Positions 17,699 through 24,002 of a stretch of 24,002 nucleotides of DNA are shown in pieces. The position numbers and the translations under genes were made by a program. The stretch is taken from the NCBI GenBank assembly GCA_016840465.1, contig JAEOSH010000031.1, forward strand, positions 1 to 24,002. Direction: 5' to 3'. Positions within the stretch are counted from its first letter, which is position 1, and each line of letters opens with the position of its first letter. The notes under the pieces are model-generated. The model did no database searches. It worked only from the letters and a program-made list of their open reading frames with translations, and was not told the DNA's origin. This DNA is from Candidatus Baldrarchaeum yapensis. GTDB taxonomy: Archaea; Asgardarchaeota; Baldrarchaeia; Baldrarchaeales; Baldrarchaeaceae.

Positions 17699-19210
17699 AT
17701 GGTTCCAGACGAATTGATAGAGAAACTGCGGAAAATAGTTGGACGAGAGAGGCTCAAGACCTCCATTGAGCATAGACTGGCGTATAGCAGGGACTGGGCC
17801 CCGATGCTCGCATCCGATGCTTACATTCCGGATGTTGTCGTCAAGCCGAAGTCCACCGAGGAAGTCGCGGAAATAGTAAAGCTGGCAAATGAGTATAAAG
17901 TTCCTGTGGTCCCGATGGCTGGGCTCACCGGAATGGGCGGAGGAGCGGTTGCGGTAAAGGGCGGGATCGCAATCGACACCACAGGACTAAACAAAATCCT
18001 AGAAGTCGATACCCAGAACCTCACAGTTACTGTGCAGGCCGGGATAACGATCGCAAAACTCAACGATGAACTGGATAAGTACGGCCTCTGGTTTCCTCAC
18101 GACCCCGAAAGCAAAAGGGTTAGCACCATCGGGGCCGCAATAGCCTGTGACAACGACAGGGTATGGCGTTAAGCCATACCCCGTGAGAGCACCTTCGGCA
18201 TGAAGTACGGAAAGATGACCGATCACCTCCTAAGTTTGACCATAGTTACGGGAAGAGGCGAAATAGTGAGGCTGGGACCGAGAAAGGTGCCATTCTCATC
18301 CACCGGGTACAAGCTACATTACCTGATGGTCGGGAGCGAGGGAACCCTGGGAATAATAACAGAGGCGACCCTGAGAGTGTACCCGAAGCTCAAAAGCCGA
18401 GTAGTCCGCGGATATGTTTTCCCGTCGATAAAATCCGCCATCGACGCACTCAAGAGACTGATCCAAGCGGGAGTATGTCCGGAAGCCGCAAATATAAATT
18501 GCAAGCGGAGGCTGGCGTTCTATACGCATGCATATAAGGTCAAGTATGGAAGGGAGCCGGATATTCCAAAGTGGGCGGAGGCGGTGCTATTTATAGTGTT
18601 CGCTGGCGATGAAGAGGTCGTCAGATTCTACGATGAATACTCAGAGAGGATAATGAAGGAGTTCGGAGGGGCTAAGATAAAGGAGGAAGAAATAGTGCAG
18701 TCGTGGTGGATCTCAAAGCACACGCTGGAATTTCCGCCCGAGAGGCAGAAATGGCCGGACTCTCAAAGGAAGAAGAAATTCGGGGCGGCTGATCTCGGAA
18801 TTCCTATCGGGAGAGTAGAAGAGGCATATAAGAGGTTCCTGGAAATCGCCGAGAAACATAAACTCGAGGTTCTGGGAATGAACATTTATAACCAGAAGCC
18901 TAATACCGTGAGCGCATCCATCAGTTTTGCAGTCTTCGTGGACGACCGCAACCCGTATGAGGTCCGAAGATTCTACGAATACGTTAAAGAGATGTCAAAA
19001 ATGGCCGTTGACCTCGAGGGAACGATGAGCACGTACATTGGGGACGGCTTTCGACTGGGAGGATTTAACAAATATGAACACGGTAAAGCCTTCGACCTGA
19101 TGCGCGAGATAAAGAGGGTTTTCGATCCAAACGGCATACTGAATCCCGGAAAGAAGTTTGAATCCCTCTGGATAAAATTCGAGGATGGTGGGGGCGATGG
19201 TCTATCTTGA
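17699..19210 (+). CDS. FAD-binding oxidoreductase (GlcD/D-lactate dehydrogenase family), interrupted by a 30-nt putative intron
   Basis: Track ORFs 17690-18172 and 18200-19210 share one frame. Motifs include PDVVVKPKSTEEVAEIVKLA, VQAG, DPES, STIG, KYG, GSEGTLGIITE and FDPNGILNPGK. Removing 18158-18187 gives 493 aa from ATG 17699. Confidence 0.9.
18158..18187 (+). other. Putative bulge-helix-bulge mRNA intron (30 nt)
   Basis: AGGGTATGGCGTTAAGCCATACCCCGTGAG: 9-bp perfect stem, in-frame TAA, 3-nt bulges ACA/AGA and a central helix with 3 of 4 pairs. Confidence 0.75.
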
Positions 19211-20333
19211 AAAGTATAAGGAGGACATATACACATGTAACAGGACCAGATGTGGGTTCTGCAGGGATGGTTGCCCCGTTTACGAGGATATGCTCTTCGA
19301 GTCATACACGAGCAGGGGGAAGATGATACTCGCAAGAGCCTTCCTCGAGGGCGTCATAAAGCCGAGCGAGGAACTGATGAACGTACTTTACGCATGTACA
19401 ACTTGCGGATACTGTAAAGTGAGGTGCGCACTCGACACCGTCCGGATATTCGAAGCCTTTAGGGCCGAACTCGTCAACTTGGGCCTTAAGGATATGTATC
19501 ACGAGAGAGTCCTCCAGTTCATAAACGAGAATGGAAATCCGTACGGACGCGATAAAAAGGAACGTAGTGGGTGGGCTAACGGCATAAGATTTGACAATTC
19601 CTCCGATACTCTATTCTTCGCCGGATGCGGATACTCATACGAATTCCCGGATGCAATAAGGTGCGCGGCCCTCACGCTGATAAATGCAGGCGTCGAATTA
19701 AAATATCTAGGTGCCGAGGAGCCATGTTGCAACCACTTCTCAAAGACCACTGGGCATTGGGAAACGTTCACCGAGTACGTCAAGAAAAACTACAAAATGT
19801 TCAAATCGGAGGGTGTAAAAAGGATAATAACGAGTTGCCCCGCGTGCTTCAAGGCGTTCTCTCAAGAATACCCGGAGTTTCTGCCGGAGTTCGACATAGA
19901 GGTGCTCCATTATTCCCAGGTGCTTGTTAAACTCCTCGATGAGGGAAAGCTGAAGCCAAAGAACGAGATCAAAATGAAGGTGGCGTACCACGACCCCTGT
20001 CACCTCGGACGCCACATGAAGATCTTCGAAGAACCGCGTGAGATTCTTAACAAGATCCCCGGACTGGAAGTCATCGAGTTCGAAAGAAATCGCTACGAGT
20101 CCTACTGTTGTGGAGGCGGGGGAGGACTCTTTGCAACCAGACCCGATATCTCCATGAGAATCGCATACAGGAGAATTGCCGAGGTCGCCGATAGGGGAAT
20201 CGACGCCATAGTCACCATATGCCCCACCTGTGAGTCCATATTGAAAAGAGCGGTGGAGTATGAGGAGTTGAATATTAAGGTGCTGGATCTGGCGGAACTC
20301 GTGTACCAAAGTTGTATGAAAAAAGAGAAGTAG
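19197..20333 (+). CDS. GlcF/HdrD-like Fe-S protein with CCG domains
   Basis: CNRTRCGFCRDGCP, CTTCGYCKVRC, EPCC, SCPAC, YHDPCHLGR, CCGGGGG and ICPTC; overlaps the oxidoreductase stop. Confidence 0.9.
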   Translation: MVYLEKYKEDIYTCNRTRCGFCRDGCPVYEDMLFESYTSRGKMILARAFLEGVIKPSEELMNVLYACTTCGYCKVRCALDTVRIFEAFRAELVNLGLKDMYHERVLQFINENGNPYGRDKKERSGWANGIRFDNSSDTLFFAGCGYSYEFPDAIRCAALTLINAGVELKYLGAEEPCCNHFSKTTGHWETFTEYVKKNYKMFKSEGVKRIITSCPACFKAFSQEYPEFLPEFDIEVLHYSQVLVKLLDEGKLKPKNEIKMKVAYHDPCHLGRHMKIFEEPREILNKIPGLEVIEFERNRYESYCCGGGGGLFATRPDISMRIAYRRIAEVADRGIDAIVTICPTCESILKRAVEYEELNIKVLDLAELVYQSCMKKEK

Positions 20334-20358
20334 CAAACCGTGTCAAACACTTTTTCGA

Positions 20359-21026
20359 TCAGAAACCCTGTCTGCGCTCTAGAAACTTCTCGACAATCTC
20401 AGGTATGATCTTCTCCTGGGCCTCTAATACCTCCTTTTCGTGAAACGCCATGATGTGCCTGGGATACACCTTATCCGACACCACAAGCACCGCCGCGCAC
20501 TCCACTCCGTAATATTTGCACAGCGCAAAGACGCTGCCCGCCTCCATCTCCACGCACTTGACATTCCACCTCTCGTGGTACTCCCTTAACTTCCATAACA
20601 CCTCACGATACGGCGTCGCAATAGTCCATACCCTGCCCATATGAACACGTCGCCCCAAAGAACGAATCACGCTAACGAACTTCTCCACCAAATCGGCACT
20701 GGGACTTATCTCAACTCCATACGGCACATAGTGCTAGGCGAGTCCCTCCTCACAGATAGCCCCCGTGGGAACAGCGAAATCCCTTGGGCCCACATCCTCA
20801 CCAACTCCACCGCATAACCCGAAAAATAACACTATCTTTACCCTGTTTAGTGATAGCACCTCCTCGAGAACACCAACCTCGCTGGAACCTACGCCTATGC
20901 GCATTATCGACAGGGGGACACCTGAAACCTCCGCGACATGCAATCCCCACTTCTCCCCGGCCTCATATATCCAATTCGTCACAGGCCTCGCGCTCCACCC
21001 CTTTATAAAAGCCTCATGGATACGCC
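20359..21026 (-). pseudogene. Nucleoside phosphorylase (PNP_UDP_1 family), 3' part, with internal TAG at 20734-20736
   Basis: GLCGG, EEGLA*HY, VEMEAG and VVSD motifs; the two track ORFs are in frame across a single TAG. Confidence 0.85.
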
Positions 21027-21078
21027 GCGCGAAACAGTTAAATAATAAGTGAGTCTTTGTGTATATTAGTGAGCAAAT

Positions 21079-21687
21079 ATGGAACGACTGTACACACTCA
21101 AGGAAGCCTCGAAACTGCTTGGCGTTCATGTGAAGACGATACAAAAGTGGGATCGAGAGGGAAAAATACGGTGTGTTCGCACTCCCGGCGGTAGGCGTAG
21201 GGTTCCCGAGTCCGAGATAAGGCGAATTCTTGGAATTCAGGAGAAAAGGAAGATTGTTGGCTATGCAAGAGTTTCATCGCGAACCCAAAAAGACGACCTA
21301 GAGAGGCAAGTCGAACTCATAAGAAGCTACGCGAAAGAAAGAGGGTGGGAGATTGAGATACTCAAGGATGTGGGCTCAGGACTTAAGGAGGATAGGAGGA
21401 ACTTCCTGAAGTTACTGAGGATGGTGATGAACAGGGAGGTTTCCAAGGTCATTGTTGCGTATCCCGATAGGCTCACGAGGTTTGGGTTCAAAATTTTAGA
21501 GGAGTTTTTCAAAAGCTACGGCACGGAGATCATCGTAATTAACAGGGAAGAAAAGAGTCCACAGCAAGAACTGATCGAGGATCTGATCACAATAATTTCC
21601 CACTTTGCCGGGAAGCTTTACGGCATGCGGTCACACAAGTACAAGAAGGTGGTGGAGGGTGCAAAGCGTCTCATTGCTGACCCGTGA
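21079..21687 (+). CDS. tnpA: IS607 serine recombinase/transposase
   Basis: N-terminal MerR-like HTH ([24 protein letters not shown]...TPGGRRR), YARVSS catalytic Ser, [16 protein letters not shown] and [10 protein letters not shown]. Confidence 0.95.
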
Positions 21688-22687
21688 GGAAGTGCGGGCG
21701 TATTCCGTCCCCTTCGAAGACGAGAGGATAAAGAACTTAATTACGTGGTACAAGGTAATGTTGCAGAGGGCAATTGATGTAATTTGGGAGAACATCACTT
21801 GGAAGTACGACTTCAAGAAGTTCAGAAAGCGAAAACACGTCAAGTTTAGGGTTCCCGTTCTTCCAAAAAGCAAGGAGTTCAAGAAACGACTCAGGGACGT
21901 ACTAATGCGAGAGAACCCGTATGCCGCGCACTGGGTGGACGCAGTGATAAGAACCGCGTACAGCATAATGAATTCTTGGAGAAAGCGATACGTCAAGGGC
22001 AAGGCACGGAAAAAGAAACCAATCGTCGGTAGAAGGTTTGCAAGGTGCAAGATAACATTGATGAAGGTGGATTACGAGCGCAAAGTCATACGGATAACGC
22101 TAAGACCGAGAGAGCACATAGAGGTATGCTATGGGAATACGTGGTTCCACAAAAGAGTCGAGGGGTGGCGCGTCGGTGAGGTGGTTCTAAAGGACGACAG
22201 AATAATAATTCCGTTCAAGAGGGAGCGGGTACATGCAATAGAGCACGAGATAGCGTGGGACTGCAACGAGTTGACGATAGACGGATTTTCACCAACCATC
22301 GGGTTTGTGCGCGTGGATTTGAAGCCCCTAATAACCGAGAGGATAGTTTATCAGACGAAAAGATCTAGGATACAGGCGCTGATGTGTAAGAAGACCAAGA
22401 GAGGAAGAGAGTTGTGGCAAAAGTACCACAGGAAGGAGAGGAACGTGTGCCGACAGATAGAAAGGGCAATTGCGAGGAGCATTGTTGAGACATTTCCAAA
22501 TGCATTGCACATATTTGAGGAGTTGAACAAGGAGAAGATGATAAGGAAGAAAAAGGATGGTGAGGAAAGCAAACCGAAATTCTTGAGGAAAAGGGTGGCG
22601 AGGGTCAGTTGGGCGAACATTCGGAGGGAGGTCGAGCAGAGGGCGGTTGTTCAGAAGGTTGATCCGTATCTTACCTCAAAGACCTGC

Positions 22688-23474
22688 TCAAGATACATGG
22701 TTGGAGGTATAAGTCTATGAAGTACGTAAGAAAGTTGCCATTAGAGGAGAGGATGAAGTTGTATCATCAAGCACTAGAACTCAGAAGAAGAGGAGTTCCC
22801 ATAAAGACGATAGCCAAGACCTTAGGAATTAGTAGGAAAACTGTAGAGAGTTGGATCTATAAAGGGTGTAAACCAGATACAAGGGTATATAGTGTTAGAC
22901 TGACCTCCTCAAAGGAGTTGGCATATATATTAGGTCTCTTTCTCGGTGATGGTACGGTTACAAAGCATTCATCAAAAAAGAAGGATAAAGTAGTGGTCAT
23001 ACGGACTAAATATTCAAATCATGCAATCAAAATATCAGAAACTCTGAGGAAATTAGGTCTCAACCCCAGTATTTATCTCGATAGAAAATCAAAGTACAAT
23101 AAGAGGTGGAACGACTTATATGCAGTCAGGGTCTTCTCAAGGAGATTTGTTGAATTTATCGAATCAGTAACCGCAAGCAAAATCAGGGAAATGATAAGGG
23201 GTCATGAAATAGATTTTCTTCGTGGTTTTTATGAGGCAGAGGGTTCTCTAAGCTATAACAAGAGAATAAAGCAACTTCATATCCGTATTACTAATACTAA
23301 CTACGAATATATGGAGTTGGTAAGAGATATCCTTCAGTTAATTGGATTTAACGTTAATGTAAGGAGACGTAGAGGTACAAAGAAACCAGCTTATGAAATA
23401 GAATTGACAGGGAATAATATTTGTCGAAGATTTCTTAAAATAGTTAATCCGCTAATCAAGAATGAAATCAAGAT
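22688..23474 (+). mobile_element. AT-rich homing-endonuclease cassette bounded by TCAAGAT direct repeats
   Basis: Repeats at 22688-22694 and 23468-23474, 780 bp apart. Sampled lines of the cassette are about 30-43% GC; sampled tnpB lines are about 40-58%. Confidence 0.85.
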
Positions 23475-23490
23475 GCGGGTTTGTGGTTAA
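22717..23490 (+). CDS. LAGLIDADG homing endonuclease (two motifs) with N-terminal HTH
   Basis: HTH GVPIKTIAKTLGISRKTVESW; motifs LAYILGLFLGDG and FLRGFYEAEGS; GGAGGT SD at 22703-22708. Confidence 0.9.
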   Translation: MKYVRKLPLEERMKLYHQALELRRRGVPIKTIAKTLGISRKTVESWIYKGCKPDTRVYSVRLTSSKELAYILGLFLGDGTVTKHSSKKKDKVVVIRTKYSNHAIKISETLRKLGLNPSIYLDRKSKYNKRWNDLYAVRVFSRRFVEFIESVTASKIREMIRGHEIDFLRGFYEAEGSLSYNKRIKQLHIRITNTNYEYMELVRDILQLIGFNVNVRRRRGTKKPAYEIELTGNNICRRFLKIVNPLIKNEIKMRVCG

Positions 23491-23639
23491 AGACCTGAGA
23501 GGACAGGTCTTTGCGTGCCCAAATGCGGGTTGGTTGTCGACAGGCAGAAGAACGCGTGCGTCAACATCTATCTCAGGATGAAGGGCTTTCCCCACGACAG
23601 TGAGTGGTGGGAGCAGGTTGTGAGACCGCTCCTCAACCA

Positions 23640-23776
23640 CGAGTCGTGGGTGGGGTTGCCCGGATCGGGGCGGAGACCGATGATATGTCCCCCGGTGAAA
23701 GGGGGACTGAGGTTGGTGAAGCCCAAGGCACATGTCCGCACACAACCGCTCGCAAACGCGGACATGTGCTGAACCC
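23640..23776 (+). ncRNA. Putative TnpB omega-RNA scaffold / IS right end
   Basis: Overlaps the tnpB 3' end. Stem 23687-23693/23701-23707 and a perfect 12-bp terminal stem 23728-23739/23758-23769 just inside the junction. The 5' boundary is approximate. Confidence 0.65.
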
Positions 23777-23846
23777 TTATCGGCGTTACCAGGAAAACTT
23801 CATGCACCTCGAAATCCTCTACCCCTATTCCTTTCCTTTCAGCCAT
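23775..23846 (-). pseudogene. Nucleoside phosphorylase, 5' part separated by the IS607 element
   Basis: MAERKGIGVEDFEVHEVFLVTPIR joins RIHEAF in frame; the restored ORF is 738 nt. Confidence 0.8.
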
Positions 23847-23860
23847 ATATTTTATCCAGT

Positions 23861-24002
23861 GGTTGCCCGTGCGTTATCTTTTGGAAACTAAGGGTATTTT
23901 GGGAACCCGCACGGGCTTCCCCCTCGGCCGCCTCATCCCCTCGGCGGCCCATCGGGGGCCACATCGACGGGCACCACGGGGCCCGCCTCACGTGCGATCC
24001 GC
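23861..24002 (-). ncRNA. 3' part of another omega-RNA-like element, running off the right edge
   Basis: Perfect 9-bp stem 23864-23872/23908-23916, 7-bp stem 23926-23932/23943-23949, and the 11-mer CATCGACGGGC shared with 10181-10191. Confidence 0.45.

Follow-up and report, generated by a model that had tools for sequence, protein, structure and literature searches.

The usual view is that a homing endonuclease gene requires an intron or an intein if its landing in a conserved gene is to be harmless. Free-standing homing endonuclease genes are nevertheless found in T-even phages, where the seg and mob genes code for enzymes of the GIY-YIG or HNH families; these genes are mostly intergenic, and a gene next to them is the one that is cut. 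The mobE gene (see PMC2790892 for its biology) reportedly splits the nrdA gene of Aeromonas phage Aeh1 into a working 'gene in pieces'. Two-piece host genes are also known in the form of fractured genes, which combine split inteins with a free-standing endonuclease gene between the halves (PMC2677866). Among transposons, IStrons consist of a group I intron fused to an IS605 or IS607 insertion sequence (IS) element with tnpB (PMC4227781; bioRxiv 10.1101/2023.11.20.567912). TnpB is the transposon's RNA-guided homing nuclease, which targets the empty donor site by means of a guide RNA (PMC10055086; PMC8612924), and tnpB is dispensable for transposition (PMC8612924). Here we describe a cassette encoding a LAGLIDADG homing endonuclease within the tnpB gene of an IS607-type element of Candidatus Baldrarchaeum yapensis (GCA_016840465.1, contig JAEOSH010000031.1); the whole 24,002-nt stretch analysed is referred to as the window. 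Sequence comparison makes it likely (probability about 0.85) that the cassette is a free-standing homing endonuclease gene, with neither intron nor intein, and that its homing site is the DNA encoding the first CxxC of IS607-family tnpB.

The cassette splits the second Cys codon of the first CxxC in the TnpB zinc finger. The original prediction had described a 780-bp A+T-rich segment that divides this codon at TCSR/CG (the slash marks the junction), and direct reading bore this out, with a G+C content of 36.0% for the cassette versus 49.5% for the remaining IS. Its claim that almost no non-coding sequence is present also held, as only a 22-nt leader precedes the open reading frame (ORF). The GGAGGT Shine-Dalgarno (SD) sequence, the start codon overlapping a premature tnpB stop, and the stop codon taken from downstream tnpB DNA could all be read directly. 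The tnpB frame runs through ...VDPYLTSKTCSR and then YMVGGISL to a TGA at 22718–22720, which the endonuclease ATG at 22717 overlaps; the endonuclease ORF ends at a TAA at 23488–23490, and its last 16 nt, stop codon included, are tnpB exon DNA. At the place equivalent to the SD, two of the related loci described below (L009 and L011) carry AGGTGAT. Deletion of the 780 bp in silico restored TCSRCGFVVKDLRGQVFAC, as expected from the original prediction, but the frame breaks again near 23518, where one C has gone from a CCCC run, a lesion that had been missed. After removal of the cassette, PKCGLVVDRQKN... consequently falls in another frame, and the RuvC-III-containing PKCGLVVDRQKNACVNIYL... lies in a different frame from the rest of tnpB. 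The leader at 22698–22704, just 5' of the SD, can pair with 23451–23457 (..LIK.. codons towards the 3' terminus of the ORF). The window pairs UGGUUGG with CUAAUCA, L013 pairs UGAUUAG with CUAAUCA, and L009 and L011 have UUUU..UGAU/AUCAAAAA. Changes within this pairing are one-sided only; the pairing might hide the SD, or it might be fortuitous, given the A+T richness of the sequence.

An uninvaded allele of the same locus was found. The 90% cluster of the truncated tnpB product includes a 423-amino-acid member, P0175, encoded on the metagenome contig L060. The neighbourhood on L060 is that of the window (FAD-oxidase, CCG/Fe-S gene, PNP fragments, tnpA and tnpB), and L060 matches window positions 18659–22689 at 99.9% (4 mismatches in 4,031 nt) and positions 23472–23999 at 99.1%, while lacking positions 22690–23471 and being free of the cassette. 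P0175 is an uninterrupted TnpB (...TCSRCGFVVKDLRGQVFACPKCGLVVDRQKN...) that carries PF27234 and PF07282. Its residues 1–347 are identical in protein sequence to the 5' part of the window tnpB, whose product (P0008) carries PF27234 on record. The empty site, centred on CTCTCGAT/GCGGG, reads CTGCTCTCGAT/GCGGG versus CTGCTCAAGAT in the window. Alleles with and without the cassette at this codon, which the original prediction had proposed to search for, thus both exist, one pair of them at the same locus.

Comparison of the two alleles also clarifies the 7-bp direct repeat TCAAGAT. Its two copies, 780 bp apart, are present at both ends of the cassette as originally noted, but the repeat is not a property of the element: the 5' flank reads TCTCGAT in the empty allele, with TC rather than AA at 22690–22691, and at the other occupied loci the two junctions share just 1–5 nt. 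The repeat is therefore allele-specific and does not represent a target duplication, and L060 represents the uninvaded state rather than a repeat-mediated deletion of the window allele. Both changes at 22690–22691 are synonymous and are the only differences for more than 2 kb of 5' flank; they may be a short co-conversion tract left by the donor allele. Near 23518 the empty allele has CCCC where the window has CCC, so the second lesion in the window is the loss of a single nucleotide, which the empty allele still has. L053 and L054, IS607 copies of approximately 70% identity, are also contiguous across the site and cassette-free.

Some additional features of these alleles were noted. On the 3' side of the cassette, five differences separate the occupied from the empty allele within 530 nt (23518, 23667, 23701, 23752 and 23774), three of these being 1-nt homopolymer indels, compared with 4 differences in 4,031 nt on the 5' side and none in the 1-kb 5' part of tnpB. 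The downstream excess may reflect relaxed constraint, repair-linked mutation or assembly noise. L060 has itself lost a G, which gives its TnpB a shorter tail (..PPVKGD and stop). The cassette-free copies L053:4002-4110, L054:3999-4100 and L056:3997-4100 each carry a 1-nt frameshift in the approximately 40 nt between the CxxC pairs; part of this stretch, which may be a mutational hot spot, forms a 9-bp hairpin in the window, AAAGACCTG..CAGGTCTTT (23489–23512).

Insertion at this codon is recurrent. Only seven relatives of the endonuclease were found in 5.8 billion proteins, and a scan of species genomes added two loci. All homologues of at least 45% identity lie inside IS607 tnpB, split at the same Cys codon. 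Six distinct tnpB contexts are occupied: the window, locus B (L064/L065), L006/L013, L009, L011 and L014, the cassettes of the latter five genes being related ones (46–95% identity). Locus B has a 780-bp cassette in a decayed tnpB and a different chromosomal context, L064 being frameshifted. L006/L013 derives from a Desulfurococcaceae metagenome-assembled genome (MAG); its endonuclease gene is frameshifted and its tnpB heavily decayed. In L011, tnpA is followed by a tnpB 5' part of 327 amino acids (ending SCPLYFR and stop), an endonuclease gene of 254 codons and a tnpB 3' part of 99 codons; L009 has the same layout. The L014 endonuclease lacks the helix-turn-helix (HTH) domain, and 12–13 nt of exon 1 have been lost there. 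All occupied loci have in common the 3' junction, at which ...IKN.. is followed by TG(T/C)GG, and an endonuclease stop codon supplied by tnpB exon DNA. Occupancy is low, since among the 120 TnpB relatives that matched best, 108 have an uninterrupted zinc finger and none but the product of the window itself stops at the junction. Four further truncated products were rejected as occupied alleles, P0011, P0015 and P0122 being plain frameshift copies with an empty site and P0055 stopping at a contig end.

The location of the closest homologues, which the original prediction had asked to be placed among intron, intein or other tnpB genes, is accordingly within tnpB. Relatives that reach no more than 35% identity are HTH-LAGLIDADG genes that stand free among housekeeping genes (in DPANN, Hadarchaeota and other lineages) and belong to neither rRNA introns nor inteins. 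A ribosomal RNA intron context was considered for these and rejected on the basis of their ORF maps; no rRNA was found near them, and an Rfam search of 20 loci gave only two tRNAs. Examples of such distant genes, at approximately 30% identity, are L019:2647-3579, L021:2644-3597, L017:215-1405 and L018:2575-3765. They lie between ribosomal-protein genes and an RNA polymerase subunit N-like gene in Woesearchaeota and Nanoarchaeota MAGs, and just 5' of an aminoacyl-tRNA synthetase-like gene in Hadarchaeota MAGs.

The cassettes are more alike than the transposons that carry them. Between the window and L064, cassette identity is 95.5%, but the 5' and 3' flanks reach just 60.5% and 42.7%, respectively. 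Between the window and L013 the cassettes are 81.9% identical and the flanks approximately 40–60%; blastn aligns only 22682–23483, and sliding identity falls from 72–93% to approximately 40–60% at both junctions. A third pair shows 92% identity for the cassette against 55–90% for the flanks, the drop at the junctions being sharp in the first two pairs. Synonymous divergence (dS) between L009 and L011 is 0.24 for the endonuclease gene and 0.55–0.70 for tnpB, and the window and L011 cassettes are approximately 55% identical. The G+C content of the cassette is 32–36% at all loci versus 35–50% for the flanks. The excess of cassette over flank identity indicates that the cassette moves on its own, and the cassette is younger than its flanks.

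Both the domain content and the pattern of substitution point to a functional enzyme. Pfam identified LAGLIDADG_3 (2.6e-21, two stretches) and an N-terminal HTH_23/HTH_7. The LAGLIDADG motifs, at residues 70–79 and 167–176, read LGLFLGDG with D78 and LRGFYEAEG with E175; G77, D78 and G79, as well as E173, E175 and G176, are invariant in 6 homologues. The best match in the PDB was I-DmoI (E 2.4e-5, both motifs aligned), with the predicted catalytic residues D78 and E175 aligning to its GDG and AEG motifs. Our own structure model, built from a 6-sequence alignment, was poor (predicted local distance difference test (pLDDT) 61), although it showed the expected order of alpha-beta-beta-alpha-beta-beta-alpha elements. 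A Foldseek search with this poor model placed I-DmoI first and I-Tsp061I also among the top matches, at template-modelling (TM) scores of only 0.26–0.36, and so lends weak support. The Atlas model (pLDDT 0.83) matched LAGLIDADG_3 clusters with TM scores of 0.62–0.73. Ratios of nonsynonymous to synonymous substitution (dN/dS) of 0.22, 0.14 and 0.27 indicate that the endonuclease gene is under purifying selection. From its sequence, the protein is an ordinary family member, a monomeric double-motif LAGLIDADG homing endonuclease.

These comparisons reveal presence/absence polymorphism at a defined site (L060 versus six occupied loci) together with movement independent of the flanks. The empty allele, the contrast between cassette and flanks, selection on the gene and its intact motifs are, as far as sequence can tell, what a homing endonuclease gene would leave that is active or was so recently. 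They also bear out the central proposal of the original prediction, that tnpB of a transposon serves a homing endonuclease gene as its homing site; each comparative test suggested there came out in its favour. We propose that an I-DmoI-like monomeric LAGLIDADG enzyme with an extra N-terminal HTH would recognise the uninterrupted site, approximately AAGACCTGCTCTCGAT/GCGGGTTTGTGG, and make a double-strand break there. Repair of the break by recombination from an occupied allele would copy the cassette in, and the insertion would destroy the site. The endonuclease would be translated as a downstream cistron of the tnpA-tnpB transcript, making use of its own SD, the overlap of its ATG with the tnpB stop, and a stop codon within the tnpB exon. 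Because IS607 transposition needs only TnpA, the transposon could still move and would carry the endonuclease gene to new genomes, where resident tnpB copies would be invaded. Because tnpB is dispensable to the cell, the cassette would need no splicing element. The cassette is a parasite of a parasite.

The consequence for the transposon is most likely the loss of TnpB, as judged from the truncation of tnpB by the insertion. Decay has followed insertion in several copies: the window has lost the C that is still present in the empty allele, and decay is heavy in L006/L013 and L064. The original prediction had suggested that the endonuclease might replace the nuclease function of TnpB. This suggestion does not fit, because the target of the endonuclease would be tnpB itself and not the donor site of the transposon, so that it could not take over the role of TnpB in transposon retention (PMC10055086).

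The coordinates of the element and its surroundings are collected in the table. The IS607-type element spans approximately 21020–23780 on the + strand of the window, with its left end near 21018–21024, where homology to other IS607 copies starts. Assignment to IS607 is based on the TnpA product, a serine recombinase whose N-terminus bears a MerR-like HTH, on a tnpB that follows and overlaps tnpA, and on a Cas12f1-like TNB domain (1.1e-14, Pfam) in P0009; the tnpA gene is 75–83% identical to those of L011 and L014. The nesting of host gene, IS607 element and homing endonuclease gene that had been predicted originally is supported by Pfam hits on the fragments to either side, which fit a PNP_UDP_1-like gene interrupted by the IS. 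The N-terminus of this gene, MAERKGIGVEDFEVHEVFLVTP, likely lies beyond the IS at approximately 23780–23846 (− strand), and the two fragments would once have been continuous where the IS now lies; the class yielded no close orthologue that could confirm this. The host gene also has an in-frame stop at 20734–20736 (..EEGLA, stop, HYVPYG..) and looks like a pseudogene with two lesions, the IS insertion and this stop.

Features of the IS607-type element, its cassette and the interrupted host gene in the window
Feature	Coordinates	Strand	Remarks
IS607 tnpA	21079..21687	+	202-aa serine recombinase with MerR-like HTH; Pfam Resolvase 1.5e-26, HTH_17/MerR
tnpB 5' part	21686..22694	+	WED/REC/RuvC-I/II up to first Cys of zinc finger
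TCAAGAT, 5' copy	22688..22694	+	final T is base 1 of the split Cys codon
Mobile cassette	22695..23474	+	leader and endonuclease ORF
SD-like GGAGGT	22703..22708	+	8 nt ahead of ATG (direct reading)
Homing endonuclease ORF	22717..23490	+	257 aa; HTH at approximately residues 16-50, two LAGLIDADG motifs
TCAAGAT, 3' copy	23468..23474	+	cassette end; part of endonuclease codons ..EIKM
tnpB 3' part	23475..23772	+	remaining zinc finger, RuvC-III (DRQKN), tail; frame broken near 23518
Conserved 3' end of IS	23640..23780	+	nucleotide-level conservation with L003, L013 and L056; presumed omega-RNA scaffold and right end
Host PNP_UDP_1-like gene, IS-interrupted	20359..21030	-	Pfam PNP_UDP_1 on both fragments (translations)

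A potential concern with a free-standing homing endonuclease gene is that some observations weigh against it. Both tnpB halves remain open in L009, L011 and L014, with the ATG of the 3' half overlapping the endonuclease stop, and tnpB could still be used there, either split or spliced. The window genome contains a single copy of the cassette, and the similar central site CTGCTCCAGATGTGG in its other IS607 element is uninvaded. No donor allele with a TCAAGAT 5' flank is present among the sampled alleles, which leaves the co-conversion reading unproven. It is doubtful that tnpB has not been killed, the transposon tolerating its parasite through mRNA splicing or cooperating split halves as a stable three-layer mobile element. 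Of these two routes, the one through split halves is unlikely. It holds that the 5' (RuvC-I/II) and 3' (half zinc finger, RuvC-III) polypeptides of tnpB assemble into an active RNA-guided nuclease, with translation of the 3' fragment coupled to the endonuclease stop. Intact 5' ORFs of 324–327 amino acids and 3' ORFs of 99–101 amino acids in L009, L011 and L014, with the ATG over the endonuclease stop in all three, are what such an arrangement would produce, cassette-free relatives having M, L, V or I at the position of the ATG; M is found in 2 of 6 empty alleles, however, which means that the ATG is not necessarily adaptive. The window keeps an open frame of 85 codons from a GTG at 23515, but the frameshift here and the decay in L013 and L064 speak against a maintained gene. 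The tnpB halves of L009 and L011 show dN/dS of 0.26–0.31, but such values may predate the insertion, the cassette being younger than its flanks; use of the endonuclease dS as an insertion clock for selection on the halves was rejected, as the cassette may postdate the split of the endonuclease lineages in each allele. The zinc site would moreover be incomplete, for the second Cys of the first CxxC has been removed from the 5' fragments of four loci, namely the window, L011, L013 and L064 (CSRY, CPLY and CPRY), and the ATG-started 3' fragment is without it too. As to splicing, the tnpB frame stops 9 codons past the junction and does not match the endonuclease frame at either end, so the cassette is not an intein; Pfam found no Hint/intein domain, and there are no splicing blocks on either side of the cassette and no split-intein halves at the ends of the tnpB pieces. 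Group I and group II introns were rejected, as just the leader of the cassette is non-coding and no Rfam match was obtained in 20500–24002 at E up to 1. A bulge-helix-bulge (BHB) mRNA intron is the one splicing element that merits serious consideration. Excision of the 780 nt as such an intron, with the tRNA-splicing endonuclease rejoining tnpB and releasing a circular RNA with an endless 260-codon ORF, is very unlikely. It would agree with I-DmoI and I-Tsp061I, the nearest characterised relatives, being encoded in archaeal BHB introns, and with an ORF that fills nearly the whole insert as in such introns. Pairing between AGACCUGC of exon 1 and GCGGGUUU of exon 2 is possible in the window, and each TCAAGAU would give a 3-nt bulge plus 4 nt; yet the AGAU/AGAU centre makes only two Watson-Crick pairs (2 of 4 positions), the second flanking helix is absent, the symmetric repeat is specific to the window allele, and the near-junction fold consists of the exon-exon stem only, which derives from the Thr-Cys...Cys-Gly codons and is present in empty alleles too. 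Five loci were scanned under strict settings (a centre of 4 bp and bulges of 3 nt) and folded as mini-constructs, and no conserved BHB emerged at frame-restoring positions. The cassette length is a multiple of 3, and the excised circle is free of stops in the window, L009 and L011 (780, 771 and 768 nt), but a stop-free circle arises by chance with high probability and is not a sign of splicing. Exon 2 of the window is frameshifted, so that splicing would not restore TnpB, and occupied alleles decay. Were the cassette spliced out, a BHB intron with an endonuclease gene would be known from a protein-coding gene for the first time, and it would release an endless circular ORF.

Two other explanations concern the activity and the reality of the cassette. 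That it is an inactive relic, which no longer cuts and is spread passively by IS607 transposition and ordinary recombination between tnpB copies, is distinctly unlikely. The single copy beside an uninvaded similar site, the frameshifted copies (L006/L013 and L064) and the lack of a relative in 400 sampled genomes of the same phylum would all be expected of a relic; no relative at E of 1e-15 or below was found in the family (1 genome) or class (5 genomes) either. The window ORF is intact, however, with both catalytic residues and dN/dS of 0.14–0.27 across the comparisons, and 95% identical cassettes in 43–60% identical flanks, together with the 99.9% identical empty allele, indicate recent site-specific transfer rather than passive spread. 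Mis-assembly of a metagenome bin, which would have placed the cassette in tnpB artificially, is exceedingly improbable. The genome is a 100-contig assembly, and a related contig, L061/L063 (ENA ERZ1742239, NODE_5853), carries a 5' flank and cassette of the window type (99.8%) but, from precisely the junction onwards, the 3' flank found at locus B. We consider L061/L063 probably a chimeric assembly, because the last 132 nt of the window and locus-B cassettes are identical, and did not use it as evidence; a real recombinant is the less likely alternative. Against an artefact, the tnpB 5' product with its junction tail CSRYMVGGISL occurs on at least six contigs from several sources (NCBI, ENA, JGI and Logan), so the junctions are not the product of a single assembly; they recur in diverged loci, and 79–90% of the sampled words of 22300–23800, across both junctions, are present in five runs from five studies; no RNA run was among those listed for the stretch. 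Other assemblies likewise have the 85-amino-acid product that starts just past the deletion, making a local sequence error at 23518 less plausible.

A second type of LAGLIDADG gene was observed at another site in tnpB, at L014:2264-3172 (+) and on contig C96 of the window genome (L003, minus strand, approximately 458–1306). Its product of approximately 303 amino acids has a C-terminal HTH and only motif-level similarity to the first type (BLASTP E 2e-4). The site is near the 3' end of tnpB, after ..LDRGGVT and before LNGDETDD..., with the ATG at the junction and the ORF fused in frame to the tnpB tail. Both endonuclease genes are present in the one tnpB of L014. The other IS607 element of the window genome has the second type, which is decaying (in-frame stop and 3' frameshift), and its first site is empty.

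A free-standing homing endonuclease gene at this position would define a new niche, in which the multi-copy, horizontally moving tnpB can host protein-guided homing endonucleases. The bare landing is in a conserved gene that is dispensable to the cell, since it is borne by a transposon, and that itself encodes a homing-type nuclease. An unrelated second LAGLIDADG gene at another tnpB site shows that the niche was found more than once. Hyperparasites like the cassette may be one force that inactivates TnpB copies, and for annotation, a truncated tnpB with an unnamed ORF may be an invaded gene rather than a case of plain decay. With its 99.9% identity, the empty allele would lend itself as a clean substrate when homing is assayed in hyperthermophilic archaea, and enzymes of this type are possible tools, being thermostable meganucleases with inferable targets of 20–30 bp.

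The enzyme compares most closely with I-DmoI and I-Tsp061I, which are likewise single chains containing two LAGLIDADG motifs, one of which ends in an Asp and the other in a Glu, come from hyperthermophilic archaeal hosts, and are encoded by ORFs that fill almost the whole insert. Identity to them is only approximately 22–25%, and the window protein has an extra N-terminal HTH (missing in L014). Their genes lie in spliced BHB introns of rRNA genes, whereas the cassette, in which no BHB was found, lies in a protein-coding gene of a transposon. With the seg and mob genes the cassette shares the lack of an intron or intein, a probable spread by double-strand breaks with co-conversion of flanks, and an insertion that can split the host gene; it differs in encoding a LAGLIDADG enzyme, in lying inside its own target codon as intron- and intein-borne endonuclease genes do, and in having a host gene that belongs to a selfish element. 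IStrons similarly nest a homing-type element with a tnpB transposon and involve a conflict over the 3' region of tnpB. There, the transposon is inside a self-splicing intron that spares the host gene, while here the cassette is inside tnpB, has no ribozyme, and makes tnpB the victim. In fractured genes, too, a homing endonuclease gene separates the two pieces of its host gene, but their split-intein domains rejoin the protein, and the tnpB halves have no intein blocks. TnpB and the endonuclease would both have a selfish element copied into an empty site by a double-strand break and recombination, TnpB being guided by RNA and the endonuclease by protein, with tnpB itself as the probable target of the latter. 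Our literature search found no report of a LAGLIDADG gene inside tnpB. The novelty of the locus lies in the arrangement: a bare endonuclease gene placed in its own target codon of a transposon nuclease gene, recurrent across loci, and accompanied by a natural empty allele.

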